Shown here in pieces: positions 44,103-64,000 of a DNA stretch of 64,000 bases. Both the position numbers and the translations under genes were made by a program. Position 1 is the first letter of the stretch; each line of letters opens with the position of its first letter. The DNA lies in the NCBI GenBank assembly GCA_001816585.1, contig MHCJ01000006.1:64040-128039 (forward strand), written 5' to 3'. The notes beneath the pieces are model-generated. The model did not search any database. It had not been told where the DNA came from and saw only the letters and a program-made list of their open reading frames with translations. Source of the stretch: Candidatus Chisholmbacteria bacterium RIFCSPHIGHO2_01_FULL_52_32 (GTDB lineage: Bacteria; Patescibacteriota; Microgenomatia; UBA1400; Chisholmbacteraceae).

Positions 44103-44224
44103 CCCGCCACTTACACTGTATCATATCTTCAATCGGGAAACGCTTGCCAAGCTTAAAATCCAGCTCGAAATTGCCAGAAGGTTAACCAACAACCAACCAG
44201 CATATCAGGAGGTTCATATATCCA

Positions 44225-44419
44225 ATGGAAGATTTTGCCAACTACCTGTACCGGAGTAGAACCAGAAAAGGGCGTTATGTAAGCCAACAAACCCTCTCCA
44301 AGCTGTCCGGCTACAGCCAGACTTATATATCTTTGATCGAAACACGGAAGGCGAGACCGTCAAAGAGGTGTATGAGGGTAATTTTAAGCGTTTTAGATGC
44401 TAATCTAAGATTTTCTTGA
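44225..44419 (+). CDS. XRE-family helix-turn-helix protein
   Basis: QQTLSKLSGYSQTYISLIE HTH; sits at GC-content transition. Confidence 0.5.
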   Translation: MEDFANYLYRSRTRKGRYVSQQTLSKLSGYSQTYISLIETRKARPSKRCMRVILSVLDANLRFS

Positions 44420-45085
44420 AACAAACCCGATTATTGCATTATCTATTAGTTTAGGCACCGTTGTATTCCAAAGAACGCCATCAACATCCTTTAAAGTTAG
44501 CTTAAGTTGCTGGGTAATCTTGTAAAGCTCCCTCATTAAAATTGAAAACGATTTGAATTCTTTTATCTCTTCATTATGATAATTGAAGTAACCGTAAAAA
44601 AAGTTCATTGTGTATCGCCTATCCATCGGGGGAAATAGCTTTGGTAACAAAAAATGGAGTGTTTTTGATACTCCAACAATTTTTGACTTTGACTTCATAA
44701 TTTTTAAACCCAAGAACAGTTGTCTTGTTATCTCCAAAACCTGTTCTAGCTCAATCTCGGTCAATCGCTGAAGTTCTTTACTGCTTAATTGAGTAACAAT
44801 TCCACTATTCTTCCGGATGGATTCCGCAAAATCATTAAAGTCAGCCAATCTTGCCCCCCGCATGTTCATATTCCACGAAACCAAAGTAACATAACATAGC
44901 TCTATAAAATCTCTGTCACCAGTTAGCTTTACTGTCTGAAAATCTACTTGCTTTTGACGTTCGAAGATCTTCCGGTAGAGATAGATTGACGGGGTTAAGG
45001 ATCGAAAGTTTTTATTGCATATAGACACATATTTGAAAAATTGTTCTCTTGATTCTGTTAATTTGTCTATATTTTCTGTTTTCAT
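44405..45085 (-). CDS. hypothetical protein (226 aa), last gene of nuclease triad
   Basis: ORF abutting Cas4-like nuclease gene (no gap). Confidence 0.5.
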   Translation of the reverse strand: MKTENIDKLTESREQFFKYVSICNKNFRSLTPSIYLYRKIFERQKQVDFQTVKLTGDRDFIELCYVTLVSWNMNMRGARLADFNDFAESIRKNSGIVTQLSSKELQRLTEIELEQVLEITRQLFLGLKIMKSKSKIVGVSKTLHFLLPKLFPPMDRRYTMNFFYGYFNYHNEEIKEFKSFSILMRELYKITQQLKLTLKDVDGVLWNTTVPKLIDNAIIGFVSRKS

Positions 45086-45754
45086 TTAATCTCCAAACGC
45101 TTTAGAGCCCCAGTTGCAAAACTCACAAGCAAAATCGCTATGGCGCTTGGGTTCTGGGCCTTTTAGACACTCTACGGCATCCTTGAATAACTTTTCTGCT
45201 CTAGTTATATCTGTTTCCAGCTTTTTAGGCTCGACTTCAAAGTCCACTCGGCCGTTTTCTGCTACTTGTCTGGGGAAATAATAGACCAGATAAGCAAAAC
45301 TGGCTGTTTTATAACCGTTTTTCATCAACAAATAGCAATAGATATCCAACTGGTGCTGGTAATAACTGCTGGTATCTTCTTTTAACTCATAACCCCGGGT
45401 TTTGTAATCCAAGGGGATATAAACGCCATCATCAACCAAGCAGTCATCCAAAACACCTTTAAGAACAGCGTCAAGCTCTTTGTCCTCATATGTCAGCCCT
45501 TCCCAGTTACTCTGCCATGATTTTAAGAGTTTCTCATCGTCAAACAGCTTACCAATTACTTTTCCTTCAATTTCTGGCGGTAACTTACCCTGTCTGCGGT
45601 ACTTGTCATAGTATTTTTTGATAACCCCATCCATGCCTCCCGGTAGAGATGGAAAAATTCCTCTTGGCCTGTGAATATTTTTGTTAAACTGCAACCAAAA
45701 GCACCTCGGGCACTCCATGTATAGGCTAATTGTTGAGGGTGAGAGTTTTATCAT
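45086..45754 (-). CDS. Cas4/RecB-like PD-(D/E)xK nuclease with cysteine cluster
   Basis: N-terminal YMECPRCFW, core IPLDYKTRG (D...DxK), QxxxY (QHQLDIY), C-terminal CEFCNW. Confidence 0.7.
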   Translation of the reverse strand: MIKLSPSTISLYMECPRCFWLQFNKNIHRPRGIFPSLPGGMDGVIKKYYDKYRRQGKLPPEIEGKVIGKLFDDEKLLKSWQSNWEGLTYEDKELDAVLKGVLDDCLVDDGVYIPLDYKTRGYELKEDTSSYYQHQLDIYCYLLMKNGYKTASFAYLVYYFPRQVAENGRVDFEVEPKKLETDITRAEKLFKDAVECLKGPEPKRHSDFACEFCNWGSKAFGD

Positions 45755-48237
45755 AAACTAACCCGCTTTCTGATAATTTCTTTAACCACTTCCAAATCCT
45801 CATTATTGATAAGATGAAATCTTACCTGATCGTGACGTTTCTTTGGCATGACTGACTCAGGCTTAGACAATTTATCTTTCAGCAACTCTAGTTCTTCAGG
45901 GTTAGTATATTGAAGCTCGGCAAAAATCCACTGCTCAGCAGAATAATAGTAAAGTACCAGATTTTTGGATATCTTTATCGCTCTTGAGGATCCAGCCCAC
46001 CTCTCAAACGACACATCCCGATCCTTAAAATCTTTTTCCACCCATTCTGGGATTGAAGTAACTGCTTGTTTGACAAACTCGCTTTTGACCCGCTTAATCG
46101 TCTGCTCGTCTGGTTCAATCTTTCTTCCCAAGGCTACTTTGCTTTCTTCCGGCTCTTCTTTATCGATATTTTTAACTACTCTGAGTATTTGCGAAAACCA
46201 CTCAACCGCTGCTTCAGCCTCCTTCTGTAATACAAAATTGATTTCCTTGACATGCTTAACTGCATTTCTGAAGTCCTTTAAAGTGATAAACCTTTTCTCT
46301 GTTTCATAGGTTGATCCGAAGTATTGCTCGAAAAACTGCCAATTCTTTAAGATTGTATTTGAATAATCCATCACATCACACTGGCAGAGTTTCTCATAAG
46401 AGGATAATTGATCCTCTTTGATATATGGATTTTTCCTTACATACTCGGCAATCTTGGTTTTAGCTTTAACTTTAATATCTTGTGGAATAACCTTATCCCA
46501 GTAATCGGGGCCGACTTTATCCCTTAAAACGTTATCGATGAGCAAGCGAAGCCGAAGTTCAATATCATCAAGGGCGCTATTGGCATTAACCCCTAAAATC
46601 TGGATGATTTTTGATCCCGTCAATCTCTCAAATTCACCTTTAATTTTTATTACCCTTTCTTTGATAAATGCCTGGTAGTCATCATTTTTGATAACTTCAG
46701 AATAAGTTATCAAGTGTGATTGTAAAGTATTATCAAAGTCAGAGTTTTCCTTATCAAACTTTGAAAAATAGTCGCTTGGGCTTTTATCTAGAATTTCTTT
46801 GTTAAGCTCTGCCGGGATAAAACAGAAGTTAGCGATAAGATTCTCTCCACTCTGACCGTGTTTTGAAAGATGGTTTTTAGGGAAGATGTGGTGTTTTTCC
46901 GGATGGTTAAACTCTGAACAGAAGTTATAATCCATAGAAATCGGTTCGTTTGTTCTGAAATGTTTCGGTGTTCGAAGCGCTAACATGCAGAAAAAAGCAT
47001 TACGCAGGGCTGATTTGGTACTGATGGTAGTATTAGCGATTTTCTCTTCATCGGCCGTAATCTGGAAATTTATCTTTGGCTCTTTATCTGAAAGCAATTT
47101 GTCAAAAATTTCTCTTCTGTCCTCACCCATTTTACTTTCCATAGCCGCTGTGTACCGTTCGCTTAGGGAGGCCTTCCAAAACCACTCGTGGACCTTCTCG
47201 GTAACCTCTTTGTCCAGTGAGTGTCGGGGTGATTTGTAATATAGATAGGCAAGTAAGGAAATAAATGAGGGGTATGGCACAAAGTCAAAGATTTTTACTC
47301 CTAAACTGCCTGTTAAGTGGTCAATTGCCTGCTCAATTGCTGAAGCGATCCCATCCCAATTGTTTTTAATCTCCTCCTTTCTTAGCTGCAGTTGGTAAAT
47401 CTTGTTGCAATAGCCTTTAAGGATTAAAGAGGCAGTATGAGTGACTACTTCCGGCGGGATCTCACCAAAGTTTTTCTTGCTGATTCTTCCGCTTAATTCC
47501 TCATATTTCTCTTTCAAGTCAAAATCTTCTCCCCAAGTGCTAGCCACGATCAGGTCAAATAGCGACAGCTTCTTACCTCCCTGATTGATCCTTTCAAATA
47601 TCTCACAAGCCTCGTTTAAAGTGGCGTTAGATACGGTAACCACGCTTAGGGGGTAGGTAGTAAACCGTCGATAACAATCGTTGAAGACTTTTCGTCTTTC
47701 CGGTGGCAACTTGTCATAAAGAGATAAGTGATCTTCTCCGATTATTTTATACAAAGGCAAGTATCGGTCGCTTTCTTTTTTGACCTCAAAAACAGAGATA
47801 TTTCCGTTTTCATCAGGAGTTTTTTTGTAGTAATCCAGATCTAGACAGATAACCGAACAGTCAATTGCTTTAACCTTGTTGTTGTGTTTAATCTCAACCT
47901 TCAATCCCTTCCAGGCAGCATATAACGAACAAATCCTTTGCTGGCCGTCAAGGATAAACTTCAACTTCTCATCCGACCTTGGCTTTTTAGGCATAATGCC
48001 AAGCTCCGGCAAGTCCCGATAGAAAAGATTGTGCTTACCAGTTGTTTCCCAGAGGAAAAAACTTCCAATAGGATACTCTTTAAAGATACTGTCAAGCAAA
48101 GCCACAATCTTACTTCGTTCCCAGACAAAATCTCTTTGAAATCTGGGCACCCGTAAAGAGCCTTCGGTTAAAGCGTCAAGCAAAGTGATGATCTGTTTGC
48201 TTCCTTCTGATTCTATTCTTGGTGCTGATATTGACAT
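45751..48237 (-). CDS. GmrSD-family type IV restriction-like nuclease (DUF262 ParB-like + DUF1524 His-Me finger) with C-terminal HEPN-like extension
   Basis: DUF262 motifs VPRFQRDFVW, ILDGQQRICSLY; DUF1524-like NHPEKHHIFPKNHL...ENLIANFCFIPAELN; C-terminal FRNAVKH (Rx4H). Confidence 0.8.
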   Translation of the reverse strand: MSISAPRIESEGSKQIITLLDALTEGSLRVPRFQRDFVWERSKIVALLDSIFKEYPIGSFFLWETTGKHNLFYRDLPELGIMPKKPRSDEKLKFILDGQQRICSLYAAWKGLKVEIKHNNKVKAIDCSVICLDLDYYKKTPDENGNISVFEVKKESDRYLPLYKIIGEDHLSLYDKLPPERRKVFNDCYRRFTTYPLSVVTVSNATLNEACEIFERINQGGKKLSLFDLIVASTWGEDFDLKEKYEELSGRISKKNFGEIPPEVVTHTASLILKGYCNKIYQLQLRKEEIKNNWDGIASAIEQAIDHLTGSLGVKIFDFVPYPSFISLLAYLYYKSPRHSLDKEVTEKVHEWFWKASLSERYTAAMESKMGEDRREIFDKLLSDKEPKINFQITADEEKIANTTISTKSALRNAFFCMLALRTPKHFRTNEPISMDYNFCSEFNHPEKHHIFPKNHLSKHGQSGENLIANFCFIPAELNKEILDKSPSDYFSKFDKENSDFDNTLQSHLITYSEVIKNDDYQAFIKERVIKIKGEFERLTGSKIIQILGVNANSALDDIELRLRLLIDNVLRDKVGPDYWDKVIPQDIKVKAKTKIAEYVRKNPYIKEDQLSSYEKLCQCDVMDYSNTILKNWQFFEQYFGSTYETEKRFITLKDFRNAVKHVKEINFVLQKEAEAAVEWFSQILRVVKNIDKEEPEESKVALGRKIEPDEQTIKRVKSEFVKQAVTSIPEWVEKDFKDRDVSFERWAGSSRAIKISKNLVLYYYSAEQWIFAELQYTNPEELELLKDKLSKPESVMPKKRHDQVRFHLINNEDLEVVKEIIRKRVSL

Positions 48238-48254
48238 ATTTTTATACTCAATAT

Positions 48255-51200
48255 TTAATTTTCTCCACTCCAGTCTTTACAAAGTAAATTTGCCTGTTCC
48301 AATACGGTTTGTGTTGCGCTTTCCTGTTTGTCCGGTGGGTAGTTGTACTTTCGTAAAAGCTTCTTAACATACACTCTTAATTTTGCTTGAACGTTTTCTT
48401 TGATTGTCCAGTCAATGGTGGTGTTTTTACGAAGCATGGACACAAGCTCTCTGGCAATCTGCATGAGTATTTTATCTCCCAACTCCCGGATGGCGCTTTC
48501 ATTGACGCATAGCGCATCATAAAAGGCCACTTCCTCGGGGCTAAGCCCAATCTCTCCACCTCGTTCTTTTTCTTTCTTAATTTTCTTGGCCAGTTCAACC
48601 AGTTCAGCGATCACTTGGGCGGCTTCGATAGTGCGATTCTGGTATTTCTTAATTGTCTCCTCAAGCATCTGAGCAAAAGAGCGTGATTTTACCAGATTAG
48701 ACCTCATCATAGTGACAATTTCATCATTTAGCAGGCGCTTAAGCATCTCAAAGGCCAAATTCTTATGAGGCAAATCTTTAACTTCAGCCAAGAATTCATC
48801 AGAAAGAATGGAAATATCCGGTGTTTTAATTCCTGTTGCCGAGTAGATATCAATAACCTTATCCGAAACAATCGCTCCCGAAACTATCTGTTTGATTGCC
48901 TCCTGATAATCTTCGTCAGTTGGTCCTCCGCCACCGCCCCCGCCGCCAGATTTTCTAATACCAGCTTTTACCGATTGGAAAAAGGCAACTTCGTCTCTGA
49001 TTTTCAGAGCCTCCTCATCGGGTACGGATAGGGAAAAGGCAAATGAAAGCTCAGTTACAGCCTGGATGTACCGCTTCTGCCCGTCTTCCAAGCCGAGAAT
49101 ATAATCCATAGCCGAAGCAATAAGTCTAGTACGCTCAGAAGCCGAGCCTTTTAATTTATCTTTATACTCAAACCCGTGGTACATCTGACAAACAACCTCG
49201 TACTTTTCAAGCATGATCCTGACTGCTTCTTCTTGGGGTATGGCTACTTTCTTGCGGTCATTGTCAGTGTAGTAAGCCAAAGCGTCCTTCAGCTCCGGTG
49301 CAATACCCAGATAGTCAACGATCAGTCCTCCTTGTTTGTCTTTAAAGACTCTGTTGACTCGAGCCACAGTCTGCATCAGTCCATGACCTTTCATTGGTTT
49401 GTCAATATACATGGTGTGCAGACACGGCACATCAAAGCCTGTCAACCACATATCCCGAACAATGACTAATTTTAATTTATCGTTGGGGTCTTTCATTCGA
49501 TTGGCTATATCGTGCCTTACCTGTTTGGTGCGGATATGTTTTTGCCAGTCCAAAGGATCAGCGGCTGACCCGGTCATCACTACTTTCAAAAATCCATCCC
49601 GATCATCATCAGAAGCCCAGTTTGGTCGAAGCTTAACCAGTTCGTTGTATAGCTCAACCGCAATCCTCCGGCTCATTGCCACCACCATACCTTTGCCGTC
49701 AACTGCTGAAAGTCTAGTTTCAAAATGTTCAACTAAATCCTTGGCGATAAGAGAAATACGCTTTGGAGCTCCAACCAAAGCTTCAAGCCGGGCCCATTTG
49801 CTCTTAAGCTTTTCTTTCTTTTCCACTTCTTCTCCTTCTGTTAATTCTTCAAACTCCGGGTCAATTTTAGGCCGTTCTTCTTCCTTTAAAGAAATCTTAG
49901 CCAGCCTTGCCTCATAGTAAATCGGTACTGTTGCTTTATCCTCAACTGCCTGGGAAACATCATAAACGTCAACATATTCTCCAAAAACTGCTCTGGTGTT
50001 TTTGTCTGTCAGCTCAATTGGAGTGCCGGTAAAGCCGATAAACGAAGCGTTGGGAAGTGCATCTCTCATGTGGCGGGCAAAACCATCGATAAAGTCATAC
50101 TGGCTACGGTGAGCCTCATCGGCAATAACCACAATATTTGTCCGCTCCGAGAGCATCTGGTAGTCATGTTTGCCGTTTTCGGGGAAAAACTTTTGGATAG
50201 TGGTAAAAACCACGCCACCAGAAGCAACTTTTAAGTATTCTTTTAATTGTTCCCGGCTTTCTGCCTGTTTGGGAGTTTGCCGAAGTAAACTTGAACAGCG
50301 GGAAAAGGTTCCAAACAACTGATCGTCCAAGTCATTTCTGTCTGTCAAAACCACAATCGTCGGGTTATCAAGTGCCTGGATGATTTTTCCGGCATAAAAG
50401 ACCATAGTTAAACTCTTGCCTGATCCTTGCGTATGCCAAACCACGCCACAGCGCCGGTCTCCTTCTTTTCCGGTTGCTTCCATTGTCTTAGAAACAGCCT
50501 TATTGGTAGCATGATACTGATGGTAAGCAGCTACTTTTTTGCTGATTTTCTCACCATCAGTCTCAAAGACCACAAAGTTATTGATAATATCCAAAAGTCT
50601 TTGTTTTTCAAAAATCCCTTTTAACAATACTTCCAGCTGAGGCACCGAGTTTGGCGCTAAATCCTGACCCTCAATAGTCCGCCACCTGGTAAACCACTCC
50701 ATGTTTGAAGAAATCGTTCCGGCTCTGGCTTCCAAACCATCGCTGATGATTGCCAGTTCGTTATAGGCAAAAAGAGAAGGAATTTCGCTTTTGTAGGTTT
50801 GAATCTGGTTAAAAGCGCCTTTAACAGTAGCTCCGGTATCTGCCGGGTTTTTCAGCTCGATAACCGCAACAGGAAGACCATTGATAAAGATAACGACATC
50901 CGGTCGTCTTTGGGCTCTGTTTTCGATAACCGTGTATTGGTTGACTGCCAGAAAATCGTTTTTATCAGGCTTGCTCAAATCCAAAAGTTTTACTTTATCT
51001 CCGGCAATTGAGCCATCTGTCCGTTGATATTCAACATCCACACCGTCACGAAGCATGGCATGAAAGGCTTTGTTGTTTACTGCCAGTTGAGGGCTTAAAG
51101 TAGATACTCGAAGCACTTTGCGTAAAGCATCTTCTCGGGCTCCCTCCGGTATATCCGGATTCAAACGGTTAATCGCATTTTGTAATCGTTCTACTAAAAC

Positions 51201-51341
51201 TACATCAGAGTAGCTTTTACGTTCCGGCCTTTCACCATCTGGCGGTGGAGCAATCTCTGGTCCTCCAACCACGCTATACCCAAGCTCTGAAAGCCACTCC
51301 AGCGTTGCCTGTTCTAAATCTGATTCTGTATATTTAGACAT
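48255..51341 (-). CDS. hsdR: type I restriction enzyme R subunit HsdR
   Basis: HsdR N-terminal domain, SF2 helicase motifs [26 protein letters not shown]; 1028 aa. Confidence 0.9.
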
Positions 51342-51343
51342 AT

Positions 51344-53776
51344 TTAGTAAACTTTTTCAGTTATTTTTATAAATTCGGCAATGTGATTATCTAGTTCAGA
51401 GATTGCCGATGGAATTTCTTTGTCTGCATGTAACAAATTTGAGTAACTGCAATACTTATAAATATTTCTTATTCTTTCCAAATCGGTATCGTTCAGCTTG
51501 ATAAGTTTTCCTTTACCAGATATTAAATTGTCGGTAACCTGAGTAAAGTTATCCTCTTTGTTCCATAATAGTAGTTCGTTTTTGATAAATCTTTCTATGG
51601 CTAACCGCAAAAGCTGACCATATTTCAAAGCTATTGCCTCTAGGCATAATGTGCCCTTTTTTGCCTGCTCTGTCATCTCCTGATAACACTGTTTTACATC
51701 CGCAAGTAAGTCAAATCCAGGATCAGAGTAGATAAAGCTTCCACCGAATTCTTCTCTATTTCTAGCTATACCAAACGTGATCGGGTTGGGATTCTCACAC
51801 TTTGATAAATACTTATAAAAAAGCGGGTGATGGGTTAATACGACAATCTGCCCAAAGGTTTTAGTTTTTTCATGGATGAGATCCGATAGTATCTTCAGAT
51901 TGGGAGCGTCAAGACTAGTTATTGGATCGTCTAGAATCAAGATAACGTCTTTTTTGTCACCAATATTCTCGTTCAACGCAAAGAAAAACGCCAAGGAAAC
52001 CATCTGTCTTTCGCCTTCTGATAAACCTTGCTTAAAAGCTCTTTCCTTTCCGCTTTTATCGTATATTCTGAAAGAAAAGGGGTACTCCTTCGTCTTCGGT
52101 GAAAGCTTAATATGCTTAAGTGTAAAATTGAGGTTGAAACGACCAATGATTTTTATCATTAAGTCAATGAGAGATTGAGGTATTTTCTCTGATAAATACT
52201 TTTCTAAATTGTCTTCTAACAAATCTACTTCCTGATCTAATTTTTCTTTTTCAGACTTTACCTTCTCGTGCTTTTTAATTTGCTCAACTCTTTCTCCTTC
52301 AACAAATGCGTAGATTCCTTCAAGTTCAGCAATCTTGTTGTTTACTTTTTGATGCTCTAGGTCAGTGTTCCTTTTTACCGAATATTTCTGTTTAAACTGG
52401 TTGATTTTTTGGTTCTTACTATCAATAAATTTGTTAAATTCAGTTATCAACTTGTCGAGTTTAACAAAAAAAGCATTTAATTCATCATAAGCGGAATCGG
52501 TACAATATTTTGGTTTTTCTAAAGTTTTCAGTTGCTGTAAAGCCCGCTGAAGTATTGATATTGCCTGAGAGGCTTTACTGCATATTTCAAATTTCTTATT
52601 GTAAGAAATCTTCTCGTCAATATTGTAAAGATCTTTAATTTCAAATTCCTGATTTACTTTCTCAAAAGAAGAAAAAGCCTCGAGTACATCTTCTGGTAAA
52701 TTAGTTATGAAGGTAAGATATTCCGTAATTTCTTGTTCAAGATTTTGAATATCGCTTAGGTATTTTTGCTTCTCGTTTTCATATGTTTTGTCAAATACCT
52801 GTCGATAATATTTGATGACAGCTGTTGCACCAGATAACGGTTGCATACACAGTGGACAGTTTTTGTTCTTTGTATCTGTAATCCTTTTATAATTTTCATC
52901 TTTTTCTAGGAATGACTTATGTTGCTCATAATGTGCTTTTATTAAAGAATCCGCACCATCTCCAGCAGTTTTTTTAATATCCCTTTCGAAAAGTTCAATA
53001 TAGACCTTCTTTGAAGAAATCTGGGGTCGGTCTGACAATTGATTTATCGTTTGAATCCCTGCTATTTGTGCTGACTTGTTTAGTAGTTTTGTGAGACGAT
53101 CCTTGTCTTTTTTTTGATCTGAAATTTCACTTAAAGTCCTTTTGGCAAGTGCTCCTTTTTGATTTTTATTTAAACTTTTATATTTGTTAAACAAGACTAT
53201 CTCTTCCGGGGAGACTGTTAGGTGCAATATGTCCTTGTTGTTGCTTTCAAACTGACTTAAGGCCATCTTTTTTTCCGAAAGATCCATCTTTTGTTTATTT
53301 GCCTGAGCGTCTAAGCTGATAATGAGATTGCCAGCGTTTTGGGTGTGATATCCCTGGATATTGCTAATCGTCCCGTGGGAGTGGATATTTTTATCTATAA
53401 AGTCAACATCAAAAAATAGGATATGTTTTTGTTCTTTTGGTGTATCATCCCATTTTCCTTGCTCGAAGCGGTATGTCTTCGTTGATATATTCCTTTTTAT
53501 ATAAGTTTTTCCATTTGGAGCTGTGTTTTTACTTAACTCAACGGTCTCAAGCTCAACTTCTGACAATACGGGTTTATCGCCTTCAAATCTTTGAAAACCA
53601 GTTAAGTCTTTCAGTATTTCACAGACTGAAGATTTCCCAGACCTGTTTTCTCCAAAGAAAACTGTAAAAGGAGAAAATGAACACTCTCTTCCAGTTTTAT
53701 CCTTACATAAACAATCCCACTGAAAATCTTGAAACGGTTTGTAATTTTTTATAGTTTTTATCTTCTTAATTTTCAT
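51344..53776 (-). CDS. RloC-like Rad50/SMC-type ABC ATPase with coiled-coil CPxC zinc hook and C-terminal putative anticodon-nuclease-like region
   Basis: Walker [10 protein letters not shown], signature LSEGERQ, Walker [15 protein letters not shown]-loop VVLTHH; ~450-aa coiled-coil insert with CPLC; embedded in hsd operon. Confidence 0.6.
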
Positions 53777-55052: not shown

Positions 55053-56562
55053 CTTTTTTTAAATTCTCCTTTATTTTCTGTTCCAACTCTTTGGATTGTT
55101 TGAATTGCACTGAAAGTTCTTTTGTTAATCTTGCCATTTTTTCTTCGAATACTTCGTCATCTTCCATTTCAAAATCTGTACCCACATAGCGGCCTGGAGT
55201 TAAAACAAATCCATTCTTTTCTACTTCTTCAATCGTGGCAACCTTGCAAAAGCCCTTTTTATCCTCATACTTGCTGTTCTTGTTTCTCCAGTTGTGGTAG
55301 GTTTGGGAAATCGTGGCTATATCTTCATCGGTCAATTCCCGGTGTCTGCGGTCGATCATCTTACCCATCTTGCGTGCGTCGATAAATAGGATTTCATTGT
55401 GCCTGTCCCGAAACTTGTTGTTGTATCTGTCTCTTGAGACAAACCAAAGACATGCTGGAATTTGCGTGGTATAAAAAAGCTTATCCGGCATGGCGATAAT
55501 ACAATCCACCAAGCCGTTCTTAACCAGATTTTTTCTAATTTCTCCCTCTCCTGAAGTGTTTGACGAGAGCGACCCGTTAGCCATGACAAATCCGGCAATC
55601 CCTATTGGTGACAAATGATGAATAAAGTGCTGGATCCAAGCATAGTTGGCGTTTCCTGTCGGAGGTGTACCGTATTTCCAACGCATATCCTCACGTAATC
55701 TTTCACCGCCCCAGTCGCTGATGTTAAACGGAGGATTGGCTAGGATAAAATCGCTTTTTAAGTCTTTGTGCTGATCGTTGTGGAAGCTATCACCAAGCAA
55801 GATATGCTTACTCTCAATTCCTCTTATGGCAAGGTTCATCTTACAAAGCCTCCAAGTGGTAGCGTTTGACTCCTGACCAAAGATAGCGACATCGTCAAGC
55901 CTGCCGCCGTGAGTCTCGATAAACTTCTCGCTCTGAACAAACATGCCTCCTGATCCGCAACACGGGTCAAAAACACGGCCTTTGTAAGGCTCGATCATGT
56001 AGACCAAAAGTCTTACTACCGAAGCCGGGGTAAAAAACTCTCCGCCGCCCTTGCCTTCAGCGCTGGCAAATCGGCCGATAAAGTACTCATAGACTCGTCC
56101 AAGTACATCTTTTGACCGGCTTTCTTTATCTCCCAGTCCAATTGTACCGATAAGATCGATCAATTCTCCTAAGCGCTGTTTGTCTAAAGTTGGCCGGGCA
56201 TAATCTTTGGGAAGCACGCCTTTAAGCGAGAGGTTTTCTTTTTCAATTGCCACCATGGCATCGTCAACCAGTTTGCCTATTTCTGCTTTCTTGGCATTTT
56301 GTAAAAGGGAATTCCAGCGGGCTTCTTGGGGTACCCAGAAGACGTTTTCTGCTAGGTATTCGTCTTTGTCTTCGGGATCTGATAATTTGTCAGCTTTTAA
56401 TTTTTCGTGGAGTTCTTCGAAGGAGTCGGAGATATATTTAAGAAAGATAAGGCCAAGTACAACATGTTTGTACTCCGAGGGGTCCATGTTGTTTCGCATT
56501 TTGTCGGACGCCGCCCAGAGTTTTTCCTCAAACCCCAGATTGGCCGAGGTTGTTTTTTTCAT
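55036..56562 (-). CDS. hsdM: type I restriction-modification N6-adenine DNA methyltransferase HsdM
   Basis: HsdM N-terminal domain, FxGxG SAM motif, catalytic NPPF ([12 protein letters not shown]). Confidence 0.9.
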
Positions 56563-56592
56563 AATTTTAAATTCTCCTATTTTTAAAATTCT

Positions 56593-56796
56593 CTACTTTT
56601 TCTTTTTTTGAGATTTGCTTTTTATATATGCTTCAATATCTTCTTTTTTATACCTGCGGTCACCAATACCACGCCTGGTGCCGATCCTAACAGCTTTTAA
56701 TATGTTGTCATTGTCCCATCTGCGGAGCGTCTGTTCGTTCACCTTCAAAATTTGGGCTGCTTGCTTGAGAGTTAGTAATTCGTCTATGCCTGTCAT
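56593..56796 (-). CDS. excisionase/MerR-like HTH DNA-binding protein
   Basis: LTLKQAAQILKVNEQTLRRW HTH; first gene of the minus-strand island operon. Confidence 0.6.
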   Translation of the reverse strand: MTGIDELLTLKQAAQILKVNEQTLRRWDNDNILKAVRIGTRRGIGDRRYKKEDIEAYIKSKSQKKKK

Positions 56797-56868
56797 ACAT
56801 TAATTGTCTTTAATTATACATTTATTATTGTAAAAAGGGAAACGAACAAGTAGAATATAAACAGATCA

Positions 56869-56953: not shown

Positions 56954-57001
56954 TGGGGGTCGTCCCTTTCTGTTTGGAGGATGACCCAGAAAAGATAATA
57001 T

Positions 57002-57850
57002 ATGGGTCATAAAAATATTTTTGCTTCCGATGGTTGCCTAGCCCAACTTGTTTTCTTTGTTTTTGTGTTGATCTGTTTATTTTCCTACCCACCTTACGGA
57101 TTGTTACTGGGTATCGGAATCCTCTTTATAAGATTTCAACTTCATAAAAAGAAAAAGCTTGAGAAACAAAAAATAGAACTCGAACAAGTTCAAAAGGAGA
57201 TGGATGAGGAAGAGAAAATTAACAAAAGATTTGATGAGATGGATAAAGTTATCAACTCCATGATTAAAAAGGGAAAGATAGATAAGAATTTTATTAAAAC
57301 GCAGTTCGCTGATCTGATCCCAGCTGATATATATTCATCAGAGAAGGAAAAGGATAATCTTATTGATGAACACATAAAAAGACGGTTAAAAGGATTGGCT
57401 TATGAAGAGCGAGAATTGCGAAAACATGAGGCAGATACTTTTATGGCAAGATCGTATCTTCAAAGAAAGAAAATACAAACTCTAAAAAAGAATTTAAGAC
57501 AAGTTGATGATTTATTTGATTTAACACCTGTCGAGTTCGAGAAATGGGTAAAACGCAATATCTTTGAAAAAAAAGACTGGGAGGTAACGGAAACAAAAGC
57601 CACCGGTGATGGCGGTATAGACCTAATCCTAAATCGACAAGATGAACACTCCATAGCTCAATGTAAAAGGTTCAAAAAAACAGTTGGTGAACCGCTTATA
57701 AGGGATTTCTATGGTGTAATGATAAGTGAAGGCGTCAGTAAAGGTTATTTTGTAACTACCGGCCTATTTTCCTTATCTGCTCTTAAATTTGCAGAAGGCA
57801 AACCAATTGAAATGATTGACAGGCGAGTTTTAGCTCAAAAATACCTTTAA
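57002..57850 (+). CDS. membrane-anchored restriction endonuclease (Mrr-cat domain, PD-(D/E)xK) with coiled-coil linker
   Basis: N-terminal TM helices, Lys/Glu coiled coil, C-terminal GDGGIDL...IAQCKRF...GYFVTTGLFS Mrr-cat motifs. Confidence 0.7.
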   Translation: MGHKNIFASDGCLAQLVFFVFVLICLFSYPPYGLLLGIGILFIRFQLHKKKKLEKQKIELEQVQKEMDEEEKINKRFDEMDKVINSMIKKGKIDKNFIKTQFADLIPADIYSSEKEKDNLIDEHIKRRLKGLAYEERELRKHEADTFMARSYLQRKKIQTLKKNLRQVDDLFDLTPVEFEKWVKRNIFEKKDWEVTETKATGDGGIDLILNRQDEHSIAQCKRFKKTVGEPLIRDFYGVMISEGVSKGYFVTTGLFSLSALKFAEGKPIEMIDRRVLAQKYL

Positions 57851-58120
57851 TTTCTTTCAATACCCACCTTATGATTTGGTCGATATAACGGGCTAATTCC
57901 AATTTTTCCTATTGACAAAAGATTTACTCAACTGTTATCATTTATACAGCTTCTCTCAAGAAGCATAGGTTTAGTAAAGAGTACCTCTTCGTAGGAGCAA
58001 AAGGTCGAGTAAGGCCGGAGACTCCTTTTTTATTGCTTCCAAAAGTCCTTAGTTTAAGTTGTTGGTGATGGAGACATGATCTCCTGAGTGTCAGTTTTAA
58101 TAAATTGCTCAGGAGGTTTT

Positions 58121-58756
58121 ATGTCAAAACAATATAAAAACAAAAAATATTTAAAGCAAAAATATGAAGAGTTAGGTTCAACAAGAAAAGTCGGTAAATT
58201 CTTTGGAGTTTCCAATGGCACGATATGTTATTGGATGTCAAAGTACCGGATACCAAGAATCCCCAGATTAGATTTACAGGATAACAACTCAGGAAAAGGC
58301 AGACGAGGAGAGATTTATATTGTCGATCACCCTTATTTTCGAGGAAAAATAATTGATCTTGGACTAATTGACGATAAGTCAAAACGTGATCTTATCTGGG
58401 ACTCAAACTCCATTGACGTTAAAACTAGCCATTACAGGAGGCCAATTTTTAGAACAAAAGTAAAAAGGCATCGCTGTATTTTTTATATTTGCCTTTATTA
58501 CGATTATAAAGTCAGTGAATTCGTTCCGGTTGAGGTTTGGATTACTCCTGCACGTATTGCTTCCCATGAGAACATCGCTCCTGGTTTTAAGAAAAAGTCA
58601 AAATTTGACAAATATCGTCTGTCAAATCTCAGGGGAAAAGCTTTTAGCACTGATGAAGAAAAGAAATATAACCAGGAGTTCGAAAAACGTTACCAAAAAC
58701 TAATTGATAAAAAGAAAGCTCAAAGAACTAGAAAAAGCAAGGAGGTATCTCAATGA
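58121..58756 (+). CDS. HTH-domain protein of unknown function, first gene of Topo-VI-like operon
   Basis: AGGAGG RBS; N-terminal HTH (LGSTRKVGKFFGVSNGTICYWM); 4-nt overlap with downstream GHKL gene. Confidence 0.45.
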   Translation: MSKQYKNKKYLKQKYEELGSTRKVGKFFGVSNGTICYWMSKYRIPRIPRLDLQDNNSGKGRRGEIYIVDHPYFRGKIIDLGLIDDKSKRDLIWDSNSIDVKTSHYRRPIFRTKVKRHRCIFYICLYYDYKVSEFVPVEVWITPARIASHENIAPGFKKKSKFDKYRLSNLRGKAFSTDEEKKYNQEFEKRYQKLIDKKKAQRTRKSKEVSQ

Positions 58757-60060
58757 AAAAACCACAATTCGTCCGTAAGCTTTTTACCACCAGTCGACTT
58801 CTGGAGTTTTTTACCGAAAAAGAACTATCGATGCAAATAGGTCACAGTAAAGAATGGTGGCCAATTGCTCTTTTAAAAGAACTTATTGATAACTCACTTG
58901 ACGCTGCAGAAAATATAAACAAACCCCCGGAAATCCAGATAGTAATTGCTGAAAACTATTTTTCTGTCGAAGACAACGGTCCTGGGATCCCTGATAAAGT
59001 GATTAATCGTTCATTGAACTACACCGTAAGAGTGTCGGATAAAAGCTATTATGTGAGTCCCACCCGAGGACAACTGGGAAATGCGCTTAAATGTGTATAT
59101 GCCGCCCCTTTTGTCGCTAATGGTGAAATAGGCAAGATTGAAATAGTGAACGGTAAAAAAACGTATATGATCGAGGTTGTTTTGGATCGAATAGACCAGA
59201 AACCAAAAATAAAGTTAAACAAACTCGATGAAGGCAATTGTAAAAAAGTGACAGTTTTTTACACAGATTCAGCAGGCTTACTTTTAACACCGAAAGTTTC
59301 AAATATTTACAAAACCCCAATGGACGCAGAAACCCTCGTAAAAAGATATGCCATATTTAATCCACATGCGACATTCAATTTAAACGGTAAAACGTATGAA
59401 CCTTCCAGCACAGTTTGGAAAAAGTGGTTACCAACAGAGCCAACTTCACCACATTGGTATACACCAGAGCAACTCAAAACGCTGATTGCTGCATATTTGA
59501 GCATGGATCGAGACAGCGAAAAAACCGTAAGAGAATTCATTGCAGAGTTTAGGGGTCTTAGTGGTACGACTAAACAAAAAGAGGCCACAGATGATGCAGG
59601 ACTCTCAGGTAAGAGGTTGTGTGACTTGATCGTCAACAACGATATACCTTTAGCACCAATTGAGAAACTTCTGATGTCGCTTAAAAAACATAGCAGACAA
59701 GTAAAAGCCACTTCTTTAGGTTCAATCGGTGAAGAACATCTTAAAACTAGAATGATGAATGACTATCACATAGCCCCTAATAGCTTTAAGTATAAAAAGA
59801 TAGCCAAGATCGATGAGGTAACTAATTTACCACATGTCATAGAAATTGGTTTTGCTATCTATGACAAAGACCATGAGCAAAATTCCCGACAAGTAATATC
59901 TGGTCTAAATTGGTCACCAACATTTGATTTTTTGAGTGAGGCAAAAACAATGTTGTTTGAGAACCACATAGAACCACAAGATCCAGTTTGTGTGGTTTGT
60001 CATATCGCCCGGCCAAAATTTGAATATACCGACAAAGGAAAGGAGCAAGTATGTCTTTAA
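58753..60060 (+). CDS. Top6B-like GHKL (Bergerat-fold) ATPase
   Basis: N-box LKELIDNSLDAAE, G1 box VEDNGPGI, G2 box SPTRGQLGNAL. Confidence 0.7.
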   Translation: MKKPQFVRKLFTTSRLLEFFTEKELSMQIGHSKEWWPIALLKELIDNSLDAAENINKPPEIQIVIAENYFSVEDNGPGIPDKVINRSLNYTVRVSDKSYYVSPTRGQLGNALKCVYAAPFVANGEIGKIEIVNGKKTYMIEVVLDRIDQKPKIKLNKLDEGNCKKVTVFYTDSAGLLLTPKVSNIYKTPMDAETLVKRYAIFNPHATFNLNGKTYEPSSTVWKKWLPTEPTSPHWYTPEQLKTLIAAYLSMDRDSEKTVREFIAEFRGLSGTTKQKEATDDAGLSGKRLCDLIVNNDIPLAPIEKLLMSLKKHSRQVKATSLGSIGEEHLKTRMMNDYHIAPNSFKYKKIAKIDEVTNLPHVIEIGFAIYDKDHEQNSRQVISGLNWSPTFDFLSEAKTMLFENHIEPQDPVCVVCHIARPKFEYTDKGKEQVCL

Positions 60061-61277
60061 CCAATGATTTACAATCGGCTTTTAAATCGACTTCTAGAGA
60101 TTGGAAACAGAAGAAAAAGGGGCTTAGACGGCAAGAAAGCATGAGTTCATGGGGTTTATCAAGTTTACGCTCATACCGTCCACCACGGCAAACAGTAAGA
60201 GACGCTGCTTTTAAAGTTATGAAAGATGCAATAAACAAAGCAAGCGAAAATGGACGTTACTTTGCTAATGCTCGCCAGATCATGTATGCTGCGAGGCCTT
60301 TAGTACTTGAGATAACGAGGGGCGAAATATGGAAAGATTCAGCATACTTTACTCAAACTTTACTTAAAGATTATATCGAACAATATGGCGGTGGAGAAAA
60401 GATTGTTTGGGATGCTCGGGGACATTTAATCGAACCACACACAAAAAAGGTCATACCACTAGGAGGTATTGATGTATTAAAGTACATCAACGACTGGAAC
60501 AGTAAATTTGATATATACGAAGATAGTATTGTACCGAAAGGTATTAAAACTGTTGGACCTAAACTCAGATACGGTGGCGTGCTCTTTATCGAAAAAGAGG
60601 GATTTTCAGAAATTCTTGATGACGCCAGAATTGCGGAAAGATTTGATATCGCCATCATGTCAACCAAAGGGCTCCCTGTTGGTGCTGCATGTAGATTAGT
60701 TTCAGAGCTGGCCGCAGGATCTAAAATTCTTGTCCTTCACGATTTTGATTTGGCTGGATTCAAGATTCTCCAAACTCTAAAGTGTGGTACAAGACTAGCA
60801 CCTAGCACGGAAATTACAGATATTGGCCTACGAATAGACGATGTTTTAAAACTCCAATCTGAGGTTGTTGATTATAAACAATGTATTGATCCAAAAATTT
60901 ATTTACGAAATTGCGGTGCAACCAAAGAAGAATGCGATTTCCTGGTTGAAAAACAAGTTTTTCAGAAAAAATGGATCGGAAAACGAGTAGAGCTGAACGC
61001 CATGACTTCAAAACAACTAATTGACTGGCTTGAACAAAAATTACTCGACCATGGTATCAGTAAGGTAATCCCCGACAAAGCAACACTATCCAAAGCCTAT
61101 CAAAGAGCTAGTTATTGCCTTACGCTTCAAGAGGAAATTGAACTAATAAAAGAAGAATTTGATATCGAAGCTGTCAAAATTCCAAAAGATCTATCCAAAC
61201 AAGTGAAAAAAAGAATAATAAATAGTCAACTCTCTTGGGATAAAGCTGTCTGGAATATAGTTTTTGGAGAAAAATGA
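60051..61277 (+). CDS. Spo11/Top6A-like protein (5Y-CAP catalytic Tyr + Toprim)
   Basis: Catalytic Tyr motif ARQIMYAAR, Toprim Glu VLFIEKEGF, DxD motif VLHDFDLAGF; 10-nt overlap with GHKL gene. Confidence 0.7.
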   Translation: MSLTNDLQSAFKSTSRDWKQKKKGLRRQESMSSWGLSSLRSYRPPRQTVRDAAFKVMKDAINKASENGRYFANARQIMYAARPLVLEITRGEIWKDSAYFTQTLLKDYIEQYGGGEKIVWDARGHLIEPHTKKVIPLGGIDVLKYINDWNSKFDIYEDSIVPKGIKTVGPKLRYGGVLFIEKEGFSEILDDARIAERFDIAIMSTKGLPVGAACRLVSELAAGSKILVLHDFDLAGFKILQTLKCGTRLAPSTEITDIGLRIDDVLKLQSEVVDYKQCIDPKIYLRNCGATKEECDFLVEKQVFQKKWIGKRVELNAMTSKQLIDWLEQKLLDHGISKVIPDKATLSKAYQRASYCLTLQEEIELIKEEFDIEAVKIPKDLSKQVKKRIINSQLSWDKAVWNIVFGEK

Positions 61278-62289
61278 AAGGTTAAGTAGAAGATTTAAGT
61301 TCGACAATAGTCGAGGGGTCGCAAGAGACCAAGGTTAAGGAGTCAAAACTGGCAAAATCGATGATATAAGCCAGTAAGACTTCCATATCGAAGTTAAACG
61401 GTATCGGAGCCCTGCAGTAAAGGCGGTAGCCAAACGCAAACACTGAAAATGAAACAGGGGTCTTATCCAGATGCTCGCTTATAAAGCGTAACCGTCGTAG
61501 AAGTGCGAGTGAGAAGGATTACAGCTCACCTTGCCTCTGAGGCGACAACTTAAAGCAGAAGCGGGATGAATCTACTAGCTAATCTAGTTACAACAAGTAG
61601 CAGGCTGCACACTGATCAATTCAGAATGGCATAAGTAGGAAGTTGCCTTCAAGTCTCGTAAACTAGGATTAAGCTTCATGGAGTGGTAAAGCTACACCTG
61701 GACACGTTAGAACATGAGGAGTTGTTCAAGAACCGTTTATTTCTCTTGCGACTGCAGTTTATAGCTGTAGGGATTAATACTGCTTATAAGACAAACATTA
61801 TCGTAATATTTTTTCAAACACATACTCTTAAAAATTTAAAAAACTAACTTTTCGTACTTATCATAATTGAGCCTAACTGTCGTTTTATTAGATATATTTA
61901 GCCTCATTTAGCCTGAAATCATAAGAGCGGTTATAAATTGTGGTTTCCCGCCTTATGATAGCCACTACCGCCCTTTTGATAATTCATAAAGTCGGTTGTC
62001 AGCAAATATACAACCTTCCTCCTATTTCAGTCGTCTGAACTCCTGTTTTCTTCAATCCAATATTGACAGCCGCCATCTTGCTCTTGACTTTCACTCGGGG
62101 TTCTGTTCCCCTAGGGGGCATGTCTCATTTAGCCATTGCATACGGGATAATTTTTTACTATACTGTTATTAAGTTTTTAATAAGACTCAACTCGGGTCTT
62201 ATAGGTAGAGTAAAAGTTTTAGGTATAGTTTCAGAGGCACATTTCGTGCCAAAGACTATACCTTTTTTTGTTATTTAGGAGGTAAAAGT

Positions 62290-62484
62290 ATGCAGTATAT
62301 AAAAGATATAAGAACAGAGGACTATTTGGATCTTCTGGCAACTAGACTGGCCGAGATAAAACTGTCGGAGTTAGGTTACCGATTTATCCCCGGAATTTAT
62401 CCGGTATTTAGACACCTCAAGCGCTTTATTGAAGCCAGAGCCAGAATCATTACACCCCAGAAAGGAGGTCGAACTGTATGTTAA
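62290..62484 (+). CDS. hypothetical small protein (64 aa) upstream of recombinase
   Basis: TAGGAGGT RBS 6 nt before ATG. Confidence 0.4.
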   Translation: MQYIKDIRTEDYLDLLATRLAEIKLSELGYRFIPGIYPVFRHLKRFIEARARIITPQKGGRTVC

Positions 62485-62601
62485 AAGCAATTTCTTACTA
62501 TAGAAAATCTTCTGATAAAAATGGGTCGAAAGTCGGATTAAATAAAAATGTCCAGCTCAAAGTACTTAAAAGTTATTTAAAAAAGAAAGGAGGTAGTGTC
62601 G

Positions 62602-64000
62602 TATGTCCAAAGCAGTAATTTATTCCCGAGTATCAACCGAGGAACAAGCCAACGAAGGCAAATCAATTGAGGTCCAAATTGATCTTTGCCGAAAGTGGGC
62701 TAAAGAGAACAAATACTCGGTTGTTGGAGTTTACCCGGAACCAGGGAGAAGCGCCACCACGCTTAAGGGTAGAGTCGGTCTTCAAGAAGCAATTGCTCAA
62801 TGTCAGGATGAAAAAATTGACGCCCTGCTGGTTATGGATACAGATAGGTTAGCTCGTAATCCTGCAGATCATTTCTTTATTAAAAAGGCTTTGGCAAAAG
62901 GTGGCACAAGACTTGTTGCTGTCAACCAACCAATGATTAATGACTCTGCTGAAGGAAACTTAATCGAGGCAGTTTTAGCGGGTATGAATGCTTTTCAATC
63001 TGAAATCACCGGAAGAAAAGTTAAAAAGAGCTTAGAAAAAAAGTGTCAGGAAGGCTGGTGGCCGGGCTGGGCACCACTTGGCTATATCAATATCAATAAA
63101 GGCTCTGATGATAAACCGATAAGAATTGTAGAAATCGATCCGGAGCGTGGGCCTTTGATAACTGAGTTTTTCAGACTCTACTCAACCGGCAACTATAGCA
63201 TAGACGCTTTAGTTGATATTTTGTTTAACATGGGGCTTCGCTCAAGACAGGGAAAAAGGGTTTACCGCAGTATTTTATACAATGTCCTTAAAAACGTCTT
63301 TTATATTGGAATGCTTAAGTTTAACGGCCAGATTTACAAGGGCAACCACCAACCCTTAACCACGCCTGAAATCTTTGAAAACTGCCAAAAAACATCTCAA
63401 CTGCATAATAAAAACGCTTGCCGAAGAAGAAAATACCGCTGGCTTTTAAACGGTTTTGTTTACTGCGGTTCTTGTAACACCCGCCTATACACCAGCTGGA
63501 ACCATAAAAAGAAAAAGGGCTACTATCACGGTAGTGTCAGAAACGGCTGTAACCATTATATTGGTTTGGATGAGCTAGAAGAGAAAGTAGCAAACCAACT
63601 TAAGAAAATCCAGTTTTCCGAAAGTTTCAGTCAGCGGGTTATTGACAAAGCCAAAGAACTGGTTAAGCGGTCACGGGAAGCTCGAGATGAGGAAATCCAG
63701 GCTCTAAGAAACAAAGTTAAGGCCCTCGAAGTAAAGAGAAACACGCTCGAGGATAACTTACTAGACCAAACCATCGATAAAGAGACTTTCAAACGTAAAC
63801 ATAACGAGCTAGAGCTTCAGATCCAAAACCTAGAGAATGATATTGCCACCATTGAAAACCAATCCGGTTTTGACGTCGACGTCATTTCCGATATCTTAAG
63901 CCTTACCCAAAACGTTTATGAAACTTACAAAAGGGCTAATTTCGAGGCTAAAAAGCACTATTTATCGATTTTCTTTGAAAGATTAGAAGTCAAAGACAAA
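62602..64000 (+). CDS. large serine recombinase/integrase, 3' partial (runs off window end)
   Basis: N-terminal resolvase catalytic motif AVIYSRVSTEEQ, recombinase domain, zinc-ribbon CGSCNTRLY...C, coiled-coil tail; AGGAGG RBS; not in ORF table because no stop within window; start coordinate +/-1. Confidence 0.8.

Follow-up and report, generated by a model that had tools for sequence, protein, structure and literature searches.

A defence island at a tRNA-Asn gene of a Chisholmbacteria genome appears to carry its attachment site inside its own serine integrase gene

What placed some 20 kb of AT-rich defence genes beside purB in a bacterium of the Candidate Phyla Radiation (CPR), a group with tiny genomes whose mobile elements are poorly described, and does the recombinase gene at the edge of that block account for its arrival? 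The locus lies in Candidatus Chisholmbacteria bacterium RIFCSPHIGHO2_01_FULL_52_32, in a stretch of 64,000 nucleotides of contig MHCJ01000006.1 (assembly GCA_001816585.1, contig positions 64,040 to 128,039, forward strand) that was analysed as a whole and is here called the window, its first letter being position 1. An earlier reading of the window, made from its letters and open reading frames (ORFs) without database searches (the sequence-only reading), had proposed a horizontally acquired defence island of about 20 kb that begins next to purB and ends in a large serine recombinase (LSR) running off the window. Our analysis confirms that positions 44,094–64,081 are a horizontally acquired defence island ending in an intact LSR. 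Very probably the whole block is one integrative genomic island of an LSR element family, including an integrase ORF that is split between the two ends of the island, and the integrase gene itself seems to contain the attachment site.

Composition and extent of the island

The right flank of the island, beyond the window, was read from contig L003, in which a coordinate equals the window position minus 50,050. Core to core, the island is a discrete element of 19,984 bp. The abrupt drop in GC noticed by the sequence-only reading was borne out by the sliding-window and tetranucleotide analyses that the same reading had proposed. In 1-kb windows, GC is 0.51–0.57 at 39–44 kb and 0.32–0.45 from 44 kb to the window end; over longer spans it is 0.392 in the island, compared with 0.509 in window 1–32 kb, 0.532 in window 39.0–44.09 kb, and 0.469 over the 7 kb to the right of the island, where it rises past a tRNA-Asn gene. 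The L1 distance of tetranucleotide usage to window 1–32 kb, taken as reference, is 0.39–0.50 within the island, 0.13–0.21 inside the reference, 0.15–0.30 in host windows at 30–44 kb and 0.20–0.24 on the right flank, making it two to three times larger inside the island, with a sharp step at both junctions. Several defence systems cluster within these limits, with the LSR gene and the tRNA-Asn gene at the edge, all of them traits of a defence island.

It is highly improbable that the block is instead ancestral, a native low-GC region whose composition follows from its gene content. By exact-protein look-ups the window also falls on MHCM01000003.1 (GCA_001816955.1), a 1.16-Mb contig of a Candidatus Chisholmbacteria metagenome-assembled genome from groundwater, and its sequence recurs in JGI, ENA and Logan assemblies, on about 20 more contigs. 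The island is present in all of the roughly 20 contigs of this species that reach across the left junction, with no empty site seen, as an ancestral block would have it. Yet the compositional step is sharp at both ends, the integrase gene abuts the tRNA gene and, as set out below, the block is absent beside purB in five relatives, and the same ends enclose other cargo in unrelated genomes.

Junctions with purB and tRNA-Asn

The bases common to both junctions form a core, GCTC, at 44,094–44,097 on the left and at 64,078–64,081 on the right, 78–81 bp past the window end, in keeping with the earlier placement of the right boundary outside the window. The left attachment site, attL (44,074–44,120, plus strand), comprises a chromosomal B arm, the core and the P′ arm of the element (AACACCCCGCCACTTACACTG...). 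On the right, the attR core falls within the last bases of a minus-strand tRNA-Asn(GTT) gene (64,076–64,150; identified with ARAGORN at L003 14,026–14,100), the 3′ end of which overlaps the last five codons of the LSR gene, so that the LSR stop codon (64,090) falls within the tRNA gene. Within the tRNA, the core takes in the final bases of the acceptor stem, the discriminator base and C74 (tRNA positions ~71–74), and the tRNA-Asn therefore stays intact.

The chromosomal gene on the left flank is purB, encoding adenylosuccinate lyase (42,633–44,000, minus strand; Pfam Lyase_1 and ASL_C). The sequence-only reading had placed the left boundary between a purB start at 44,102 and an XRE-family gene at 44,225, which comes within 8 bp of the junction found here but relies on a purB start that is too far upstream. 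Homologues of PurB are 451–455 amino acids (aa) long and align from residue 35 of the 489-aa ORF (42,633–44,102), which is thus over-extended and crosses the island junction; the NCBI annotation gives a 449-aa form. From these alignments the purB start is likely the GTG at 44,000 (455 aa), not 44,102.

A search for direct repeats as attachment sites had also been proposed earlier, but the two junctions have no more than 4–6 bp in common: GCTC is common to the island and to both related elements described below, and five or six bases are shared in single elements. Serine recombinases leave few shared bases at junctions, not long direct repeats, and for that reason a repeat search is a weak test here and would have told little. 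The ends of contigs from two assemblers flag a branch at 44,097/44,098. A k = 141 contig ends at 43,957 (44,097 minus 140) and k = 31 Logan contigs begin at 44,068 (44,098 minus 30), as expected from an assembly-graph branch exactly at the junction, and this may be taken as an indirect sign of polymorphism. The reconstructed junctions that would be diagnostic of the two other states are attB* = GGGGAATACAAACTTACTGGGCTCCCCGGGTAGGATTCGAACCTAC and attP* = AAAAAGTTAGAGTAACGCCTACCTGGCTCAACACCCCGCCACTTACACTGTATC.

One further candidate, GAAGGTTAACC at 44,176, was considered as a displaced remnant of the tRNA anticodon arm and was dropped, the family alignments putting the junction at 44,094–44,097. 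An Rfam scan of the island found no RNA family at gathering score.

A family of elements with common ends and different cargo

A search of other metagenome contigs with the LSR gave three close relatives, and in two of them, L088 and L089, both ends were compared with those of the island. Their LSRs are 84% and 81% identical, respectively, to that of the island and likewise run into a tRNA-Asn(GTT) gene on the minus strand, and a homologue of the island's XRE gene, together with the DNA just upstream of it, lies ~8.4 kb to the left of the LSR gene in each. DNA similarity of the three left ends begins abruptly at window position ~44,093 (GGCTCAACACCCCGCCACTTACACTG...), the sequence further left being unrelated, and the three right ends are conserved through ...GTTAGAGTAACGCCTA(C/A)CTGGCTC and then pass into the tRNA. 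The P and P′ arms are thus conserved among the three elements, the B arms are unrelated, and B′ is the tRNA. Measured core to core, L088 and L089 are 10,107 bp and 9,779 bp long, as against 19,984 bp for the island. Their flanks are unrelated and their cargo is wholly different: DUF6602/SMODS-like genes, a LexA-like gene and a type IIG restriction–modification (RM) pair in L088; a PIN-like gene, a SEC-C gene, a LexA-like gene and a ScaI RM pair in L089. The proposal of a horizontally acquired island of about 20 kb is therefore upheld, the same ends bracketing different cargo beside tRNA-Asn in two unrelated genomes.

What the elements share is a backbone made up of the XRE gene at the left end and two small ORFs followed by the LSR gene at the right end. 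The XRE-family helix-turn-helix (HTH) regulator (44,225–44,419, plus strand; Pfam HTH_31/HTH_3) is 65–78% identical to its counterparts at the left ends of L088 and L089. The two small ORFs (71 and 64 aa; 62,063–62,484, plus strand), just upstream of the LSR gene, are 52–81% identical in L087, L088 and L089, have no family match in Pfam or NCBIfam, and are candidate regulators or directionality factors. By these shared ends, the island is assigned to a family of putative integrative elements with interchangeable defence cargo in CPR bacteria of the Microgenomates group. To the base, the locus delimits a family of islands by which CPR lineages exchange RM modules and further defence genes at a single tRNA site.

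The LexA-like proteins of L088 (3451–4050) and L089 (6555–7160), each with LexA_DNA_bind and Peptidase_S24 domains, are encoded directly upstream of the RM genes, which suggests SOS-type or self-cleaving control of the restriction modules. At the matching positions the window island has an HTH_17 gene and a gene for a 222-aa HTH protein.

An integrase reading frame that continues at the opposite end

The LSR gene starts at 62,603 on the plus strand and its ORF is still open at the window end (64,000), as had been reported; with the flank added it ends at 64,090 and encodes 495 aa with Resolvase, Recombinase and Zn_ribbon_recom domains. Its N-terminus contains the catalytic motif in MSKAVIYSRVSTEEQ (YSRVSTEEQ) within a PF00239 domain that matches the catalytic domain of TP901-1 integrase (8.6e-16). 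PF07508 and PF13408 follow, and residues 225–419 align with the C-terminal domain of A118 integrase. The best NCBIfam matches are CcrB/XisF-like, and the PDB matches are the TP901-1 and A118 integrases. Recombinase activity is predicted from these intact domains.

When the ends of the island are joined in silico, the LSR frame (...ACC TGG CTC) does not stop but is extended by 53 codons, to 546 aa, and the same length results in L088 and L089. The extension is the 3′ fragment of the integrase ORF at the left end of the island (44,098–44,256, plus strand; NTPPLTLYHIFNRETLAKLKIQLEIARRL...), and it is in frame with the LSR gene only when the ends are joined. Over its first 42 codons this is the sole frame open in all three sequences, the other five being closed. 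Differences by codon position in the three pairwise comparisons are 12/6/20, 10/7/26 and 4/1/13, with an excess at third positions, and between L088 and L089 there are 12 synonymous as against 3 non-synonymous codon changes. No conserved start codon precedes the extension in the three elements, and the sequences further upstream are the unrelated flanks.

A census of 59 cluster representatives of the LSR family, at ≥55% identity, points in the same direction. Their lengths are bimodal, at 494–505 aa and 513–546 aa. After a conserved (W/L/R)L, about 43 of the 59 (40 assigned automatically and 3 by eye) have ends of tRNA type, namely ‘PG*’, ‘PR*’ or a read-through of T-arm codons, ‘PGLDSNQ...’, in which D-S-N corresponds to GAT TCG AAC. 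Among the remainder, 14 of the 59 end in long tails that fall into three sequence classes, the other 2 being truncated fragments. Taken together, the joined 546-aa ORF, the coding-type substitutions and the tRNA-type LSR ends suggest an attachment site within the integrase ORF.

The mechanism that we propose would start from a chromosome in which the 3′ end of tRNA-Asn(GTT) lay ~93 bp upstream of the purB start (GTG, 44,000). The LSR would insert a circular element into the extreme 3′ end of this tRNA gene, with exchange within the GCTC core. The free circular form would encode a 546-aa LSR with the attachment site inside the ORF; integration would replace the last 53 residues by ‘PG’, leaving a protein of 495 aa that ends ‘...TWLPG*’ in the tRNA, and would strand the last 53 LSR codons at the opposite end of the island. 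The integrated enzyme would be clipped rather than destroyed, because its alignments with the TP901-1 catalytic domain and with the A118 recombinase and zinc-ribbon regions persist.

A more tentative suggestion, which we regard as possible rather than probable, is that the LSR is a self-contained two-state switch whose free (546-aa) and integrated (495-aa) isoforms are unlike in direction, activity or stability. Recombination of attP × attB could, for instance, be favoured by the full-length form, whereas the clipped form could be locked or excision-competent, integration itself setting the directionality of recombination with no separate directionality factor. Serine integrases are common genome-engineering tools that ordinarily depend on a separate factor for directionality. 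If the suggestion is true, an integration event that rewrites the C-terminus of its own enzyme would be a testable design for state-dependent recombinases. Such a family would likewise offer engineering a tRNA-end target that is conserved across hosts.

Variation at the right junction

In different assemblies the island P arm, 100% identical throughout, is joined to three right-hand contexts, which speaks for recent mobility or variation. The first, found at 10 loci including the source genome, is an intron-less tRNA-Asn gene followed by a glyoxalase gene. In the second (L008), the tRNA 3′ half is the same, but a 213-nt group I intron comes next, then a 5′ half that differs slightly, and the flank is another one. 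The third (L005 and L080, and the independent contig L084) is an unrelated AT-rich kilobase with an antisense gene for a 272-aa protein; here the sequence diverges right after the core plus one base (L005:14033–15031, equal to L084).

The intron of L008 (4781–4993, minus strand; RF00028, 61.7 bits, E 1e-13) lies in the tRNA-Asn anticodon loop, between U35 and U36, and just upstream of the intron-bearing tRNA gene is an HNH-like ORF (CxxC...HH...CxxCH; L008:5059–5343, minus strand). A protein of 504 aa that is 99% identical to the island LSR and is its cluster representative (P0302) ends in ‘...TWLTKWNDFRTANW’, a fourth junction type, and its W(D/N)DFR-type tail is shared by four more distant family members.

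The L005/L084 junction was considered as the attP of the island and rejected: the 1-kb tail is absent from the window even by short-word BLAST, the junction has no dyad symmetry, and its first 26 nt have no match at the left boundary. It may be part of a sister element, given that an LSR only 65% identical ends in the same class of ORF tail. The 272-aa protein belongs to a CPR-specific family of 240–270 aa with no domain match, and its gene abuts the island LSR gene at the core in some assemblies. In other CPR genomes its homologues come directly after a tRNA-Asn or tRNA-Gln gene (L085:8001–8729 and L093:6001–6744). In one of these genomes, on a 1.14-Mb contig (L085:6730–7004), tRNA-Asn is followed by two more copies of its last 17–21 nt and a partial copy of the anticodon arm, and then by an AbiJ_NTD4 gene and the homologue of the 272-aa gene; the tandem 3′-end copies look like scars of repeated integration. 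The placement of these homologues and the tandem copies in L085 together make tRNA 3′ ends appear to be general insertion hot-spots in these CPR organisms.

Such a hot-spot could also have built up the block itself, by several independent insertions downstream of tRNA-Asn, with the LSR moving only part of it or being inert. This accretion would fit the range of GC among its modules (0.32–0.45), its two divergent gene blocks and the wholly different cargo of the family members, as well as the extra ~1-kb segment with the 272-aa gene that some assemblies have between the island and the tRNA position, the location of that gene family downstream of tRNAs elsewhere, and the three tandem tRNA-Asn 3′-end fragments of L085. 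Nevertheless, the 20-kb block agrees at its two ends with the 10-kb elements L088 and L089, exactly at GCTC, and the ORF fragment at the left end continues the LSR frame of the right end, which ties the two ends into one unit; turnover of cargo within a conserved backbone is compatible with both views. We consider accretion unlikely.

Relatives, and observations that weigh against the proposed insertion and split integrase

The reading of the block as one island with a split integrase gene, inserted at tRNA-Asn, has to be held against several observations gathered in this section that weigh against it. As regards the tail, the substitution test draws on three related sequences only; the last ~11 codons of the extension overlap the XRE start, so that the XRE gene accounts for some of its conservation; and hhalign of the 53-codon extension against the tails of contiguous long-form LSRs returned a probability of 0.1%, with no detectable homology. 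These points favour an explanation in which the left-end frame is not an integrase tail at all but reflects constraint on the DNA itself (the P′ arm, or the promoter or start of the XRE gene) or is a separate small gene. We judge this rather unlikely in the face of the third-position excess, the ratio of synonymous to non-synonymous changes between L088 and L089, the closure of the five other frames, the lack of a conserved start codon, the unrelated upstream flanks, the identical length of 546 aa in three reconstructions, and the bimodal lengths of the family, the short class of which ends in tRNA codons.

As regards the sites, the dyad symmetry of the reconstructed attP is weak, being an imperfect 8-bp inverted repeat judged by eye, and the proposed insertion does not account for the alternative right junction of L005/L084. 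The pre-insertion arrangement is moreover a reconstruction and not an observed empty site. Comparison with relatives, which the sequence-only reading had suggested as a way to find such a site, used the five nearest by PurB: L071 (83%), L072 (76%) and three Gottesmanbacteria genomes, L014–L016 (66, 65 and 65%). The order purB-purA-guaB is kept in all five and an island gene stands beside purB in none, as expected of an acquired block, but the flanks are heavily rearranged and no exact empty site was found. In L014–L016 a tRNA-Asn gene lies 0.6–1.9 kb from purB with its 5′ end facing purB, in the opposite orientation to that of the source genome, where the tRNA-Asn 3′ end faces purB; a simple empty-site model based on the Gottesmanbacteria relatives was therefore unsupported. 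No tRNA-Asn gene was found near purB in L071 or L072, the two closest relatives.

Nor did exact-protein look-ups with purB variants, the XRE gene, the 226-aa gene at the left of the island and the 455-aa purB form recover any attB (empty) or attP (circular) contig, all of the contigs that they returned being collinear with the island. An exact 30-mer from purB gave 0 matches against metagenome contigs, in a collection that evidently does not hold this organism's JGI contigs, and IMG/VR had no match for the LSR, the 272-aa protein, or DNA patterns of attP and the left end.

In L072, the 10 kb upstream of purB include genes for a PBP transglycosylase and BacA/UppP; in the source genome the same genes sit 42 kb to the left of purB (window 1–2,187) and 25 kb to the right (69,388–70,164). 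This indicates extensive rearrangement around the purB locus among close CPR relatives.

Relation to known recombination systems

The LSR has the architecture of Resolvase, Recombinase, zinc ribbon and coiled coil that is found in the Ccr recombinases of SCCmec, the integrases of TP901-1 and A118, and XisF of Anabaena. The island also resembles other islands and prophages mobilised by LSRs in its edge integrase and in the few bases that its junctions share. It differs from them in its target, the last bases of a tRNA gene, in its CPR host and in an attachment site that is apparently inside the integrase ORF. Tyrosine integrases typically have such targets at the end of a tRNA gene, whereas for serine integrases they are unusual. 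In the literature that we covered, which leaves out most subscription journals, no serine integrase is described as split by its own attachment site, and neither is this CPR element family.

Two known systems are comparable. The ‘suicidal’ integrases of SSV1 type are tyrosine enzymes, said to be exclusive to archaea, that are split into inactive halves (PMC8371274). The island is like them in having the attachment site inside the integrase gene, a tRNA target and a gene partitioned on integration that excision would make whole again, the partition being an in-silico result for the island; it is unlike them in that its enzyme is a serine recombinase and would lose only a C-terminal tail of 53 codons while keeping the canonical domains. 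In the integration-dependent immunity of mycobacteriophages BPs, Brujita and Charlie, attP lies in the repressor gene, and integration, by a tyrosine integrase, removes a degradation tag from the repressor and in this way sets a switch (PMC3694055). Common to these phages and, as it appears, the island is an attP within a coding sequence, which gives state-specific C-termini, whereas in the island it would be the recombinase itself, and not a repressor, that is cut. The island is thus a member of neither the SSV1-type nor the integration-dependent-immunity systems. If the switch suggested above is true, it would be a bacterial serine-recombinase counterpart of both the archaeal ‘suicidal’ integrases and the phage integration-dependent switches, and it would have spread through CPR genomes as a shuttle of defence cargo at tRNA genes.

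Cargo genes

The gene classes that the sequence-only reading had named (type I RM, GmrSD-like, Cas4-like, Mrr, HTH and ATPase) were all recovered by Pfam, PADLOC or NCBIfam, and some of the finer assignments changed. A long minus-strand operon is headed by an HTH_17/MerR-like gene of 67 aa (56,593–56,796; PF12728, 1.8e-12). This gene had been called Xis-like; the HTH_17 domain is indeed present, but the gene stands at the head of a type I RM operon and is cargo rather than backbone: L088 and L089 lack it and have LexA-like genes ahead of their RM genes. It is followed by hsdM (55,036–56,562, minus strand; N6_Mtase, 6e-110, and HsdM_N), hsdS (53,766–55,052, minus strand; PF01420, with two target-recognition stretches), a gene for an 810-aa AAA_13 ATPase (51,344–53,776, minus strand; PF13166, 4.5e-33; PADLOC PDC-S06/LmuB) and hsdR (48,255–51,341, minus strand; HSDR_N, SWI2_SNF2 and T1RH-like_C, down to 6e-128).

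The ATPase carries a Walker A motif (GENRSGKS), a single CPLC at residue 307 in a long helical region, and a C-terminal domain with R724-x3-E728...H783, a putative nuclease motif matched by eye. The prr locus (EcoprrI hsdM-hsdS-prrC-hsdR) and RloC offer the closest likeness, in an ATPase gene between hsdS and hsdR and in the combination of AAA_13, Walker A, a single CxxC and a C-terminal R-x3-E...H, a likeness that comes from motifs and position. The gene has the place of prrC in the prr locus of E. coli, and the spacing of the putative nuclease residues appears to differ from that of PrrC. Of the earlier label of an RloC-like ATPase, an AAA_13 ATPase between hsdS and hsdR is borne out; its identity as PrrC/RloC-like, by position and motifs, is plausible but not established.

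Further along the operon are a gene for a GmrSD-like protein of 828 aa with a DUF262 N-terminal domain (45,751–48,237, minus strand; PF03235, GmrSD_N, 3e-30), a putative type IV restriction enzyme that also matches PADLOC PDC-M55C (4e-47) and HEC-05 (2e-42) and has an H-H-x-x-P motif at about residues 449–453; a gene for a Cas4-like PD-(D/E)XK nuclease (45,086–45,754, minus strand; PF12705, 1e-10; PADLOC Cas4 models, 1e-11; below the TIGR00372 cut-off); and, as the last gene of the operon, that of a 226-aa protein (44,405–45,085, minus strand) with no match in Pfam, PADLOC or NCBIfam. The plus-strand genes begin with an Mrr-family type IV restriction endonuclease (57,002–57,850; Mrr_cat, 1.5e-24; PADLOC mREase_IV) and the 222-aa HTH protein (58,088–58,756; HTH_50, 2.5e-5, a weak match below the cut-off), which precedes two overlapping topoisomerase genes.

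The first of these genes encodes a GHKL/Bergerat ATPase with transducer domain of 435 aa (58,753–60,060, plus strand; NCBIfam Top6B, 1.5e-19 over residues 38–433), with the N box ELIDNSLDA, the G1 box DNGPGI and the G2 box GQLGNA, of the GxxGxA group. The second encodes a 5Y-CAP and Toprim protein of 408 aa (60,051–61,277, plus strand; TOP6A-Spo11_Toprim match) with RQIMYAARP, the glutamate of FIEKEGF, the DxDxxG of HDFDLAG, and GKRVELNAMTS, which contains the RVELNAM T2BI box. The pair aligns end-to-end with a fused protein of 846 aa (P0157), at 42% identity in the B part and 47% in the A part, and the A protein has matches (E ≤ 1e-3) in 2,722 cluster representatives, many being fusions of 840–900 aa in which the match falls in the C-terminal half; by sequence, there is no match among solved structures. 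The RVELNAM T2BI box separates Topo VIII from Topo VI and Mini-A, and 7 of 82 described Topo VIII enzymes are split (PMC7671362). From its motifs we class the pair as a two-subunit, or split, Topo VIII; the ‘Topo-VI-like module’ of the sequence-only reading is thus a type IIB topoisomerase gene pair, as implied, but of Topo VIII type by the RVELNAM box. It shares with Topo VIII all diagnostic motifs, a location in a mobile element and full-length homology to the fused proteins; unlike most Topo VIII it consists of two overlapping genes rather than a single B-A polypeptide, with an HTH gene ahead of them, and unlike those described it sits in a CPR defence island. With a two-subunit Topo VIII placed among defence genes, one may ask whether it serves the element or acts against invaders.

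A plasmid-type type IIB topoisomerase, together with the edge serine integrase, the XRE regulator and insertion at a tRNA gene, might also be expected of a prophage or an integrative conjugative element. The scanned ORFs, however, are devoid of any domain for capsid, tail, terminase, relaxase, coupling protein or type IV secretion, the LSR has no relatives in IMG/VR, and the elements measure only 10–20 kb, all of which leaves such an origin very improbable.

Outside the island, window 32,001–39,000 shows a second, milder GC dip (0.42–0.49, mean 0.456) with a moderately elevated tetranucleotide distance (0.24–0.26). Its genes encode Fic, a HAD hydrolase, a glyoxalase, DUF305 and a histidine kinase, and it may be an older acquisition.

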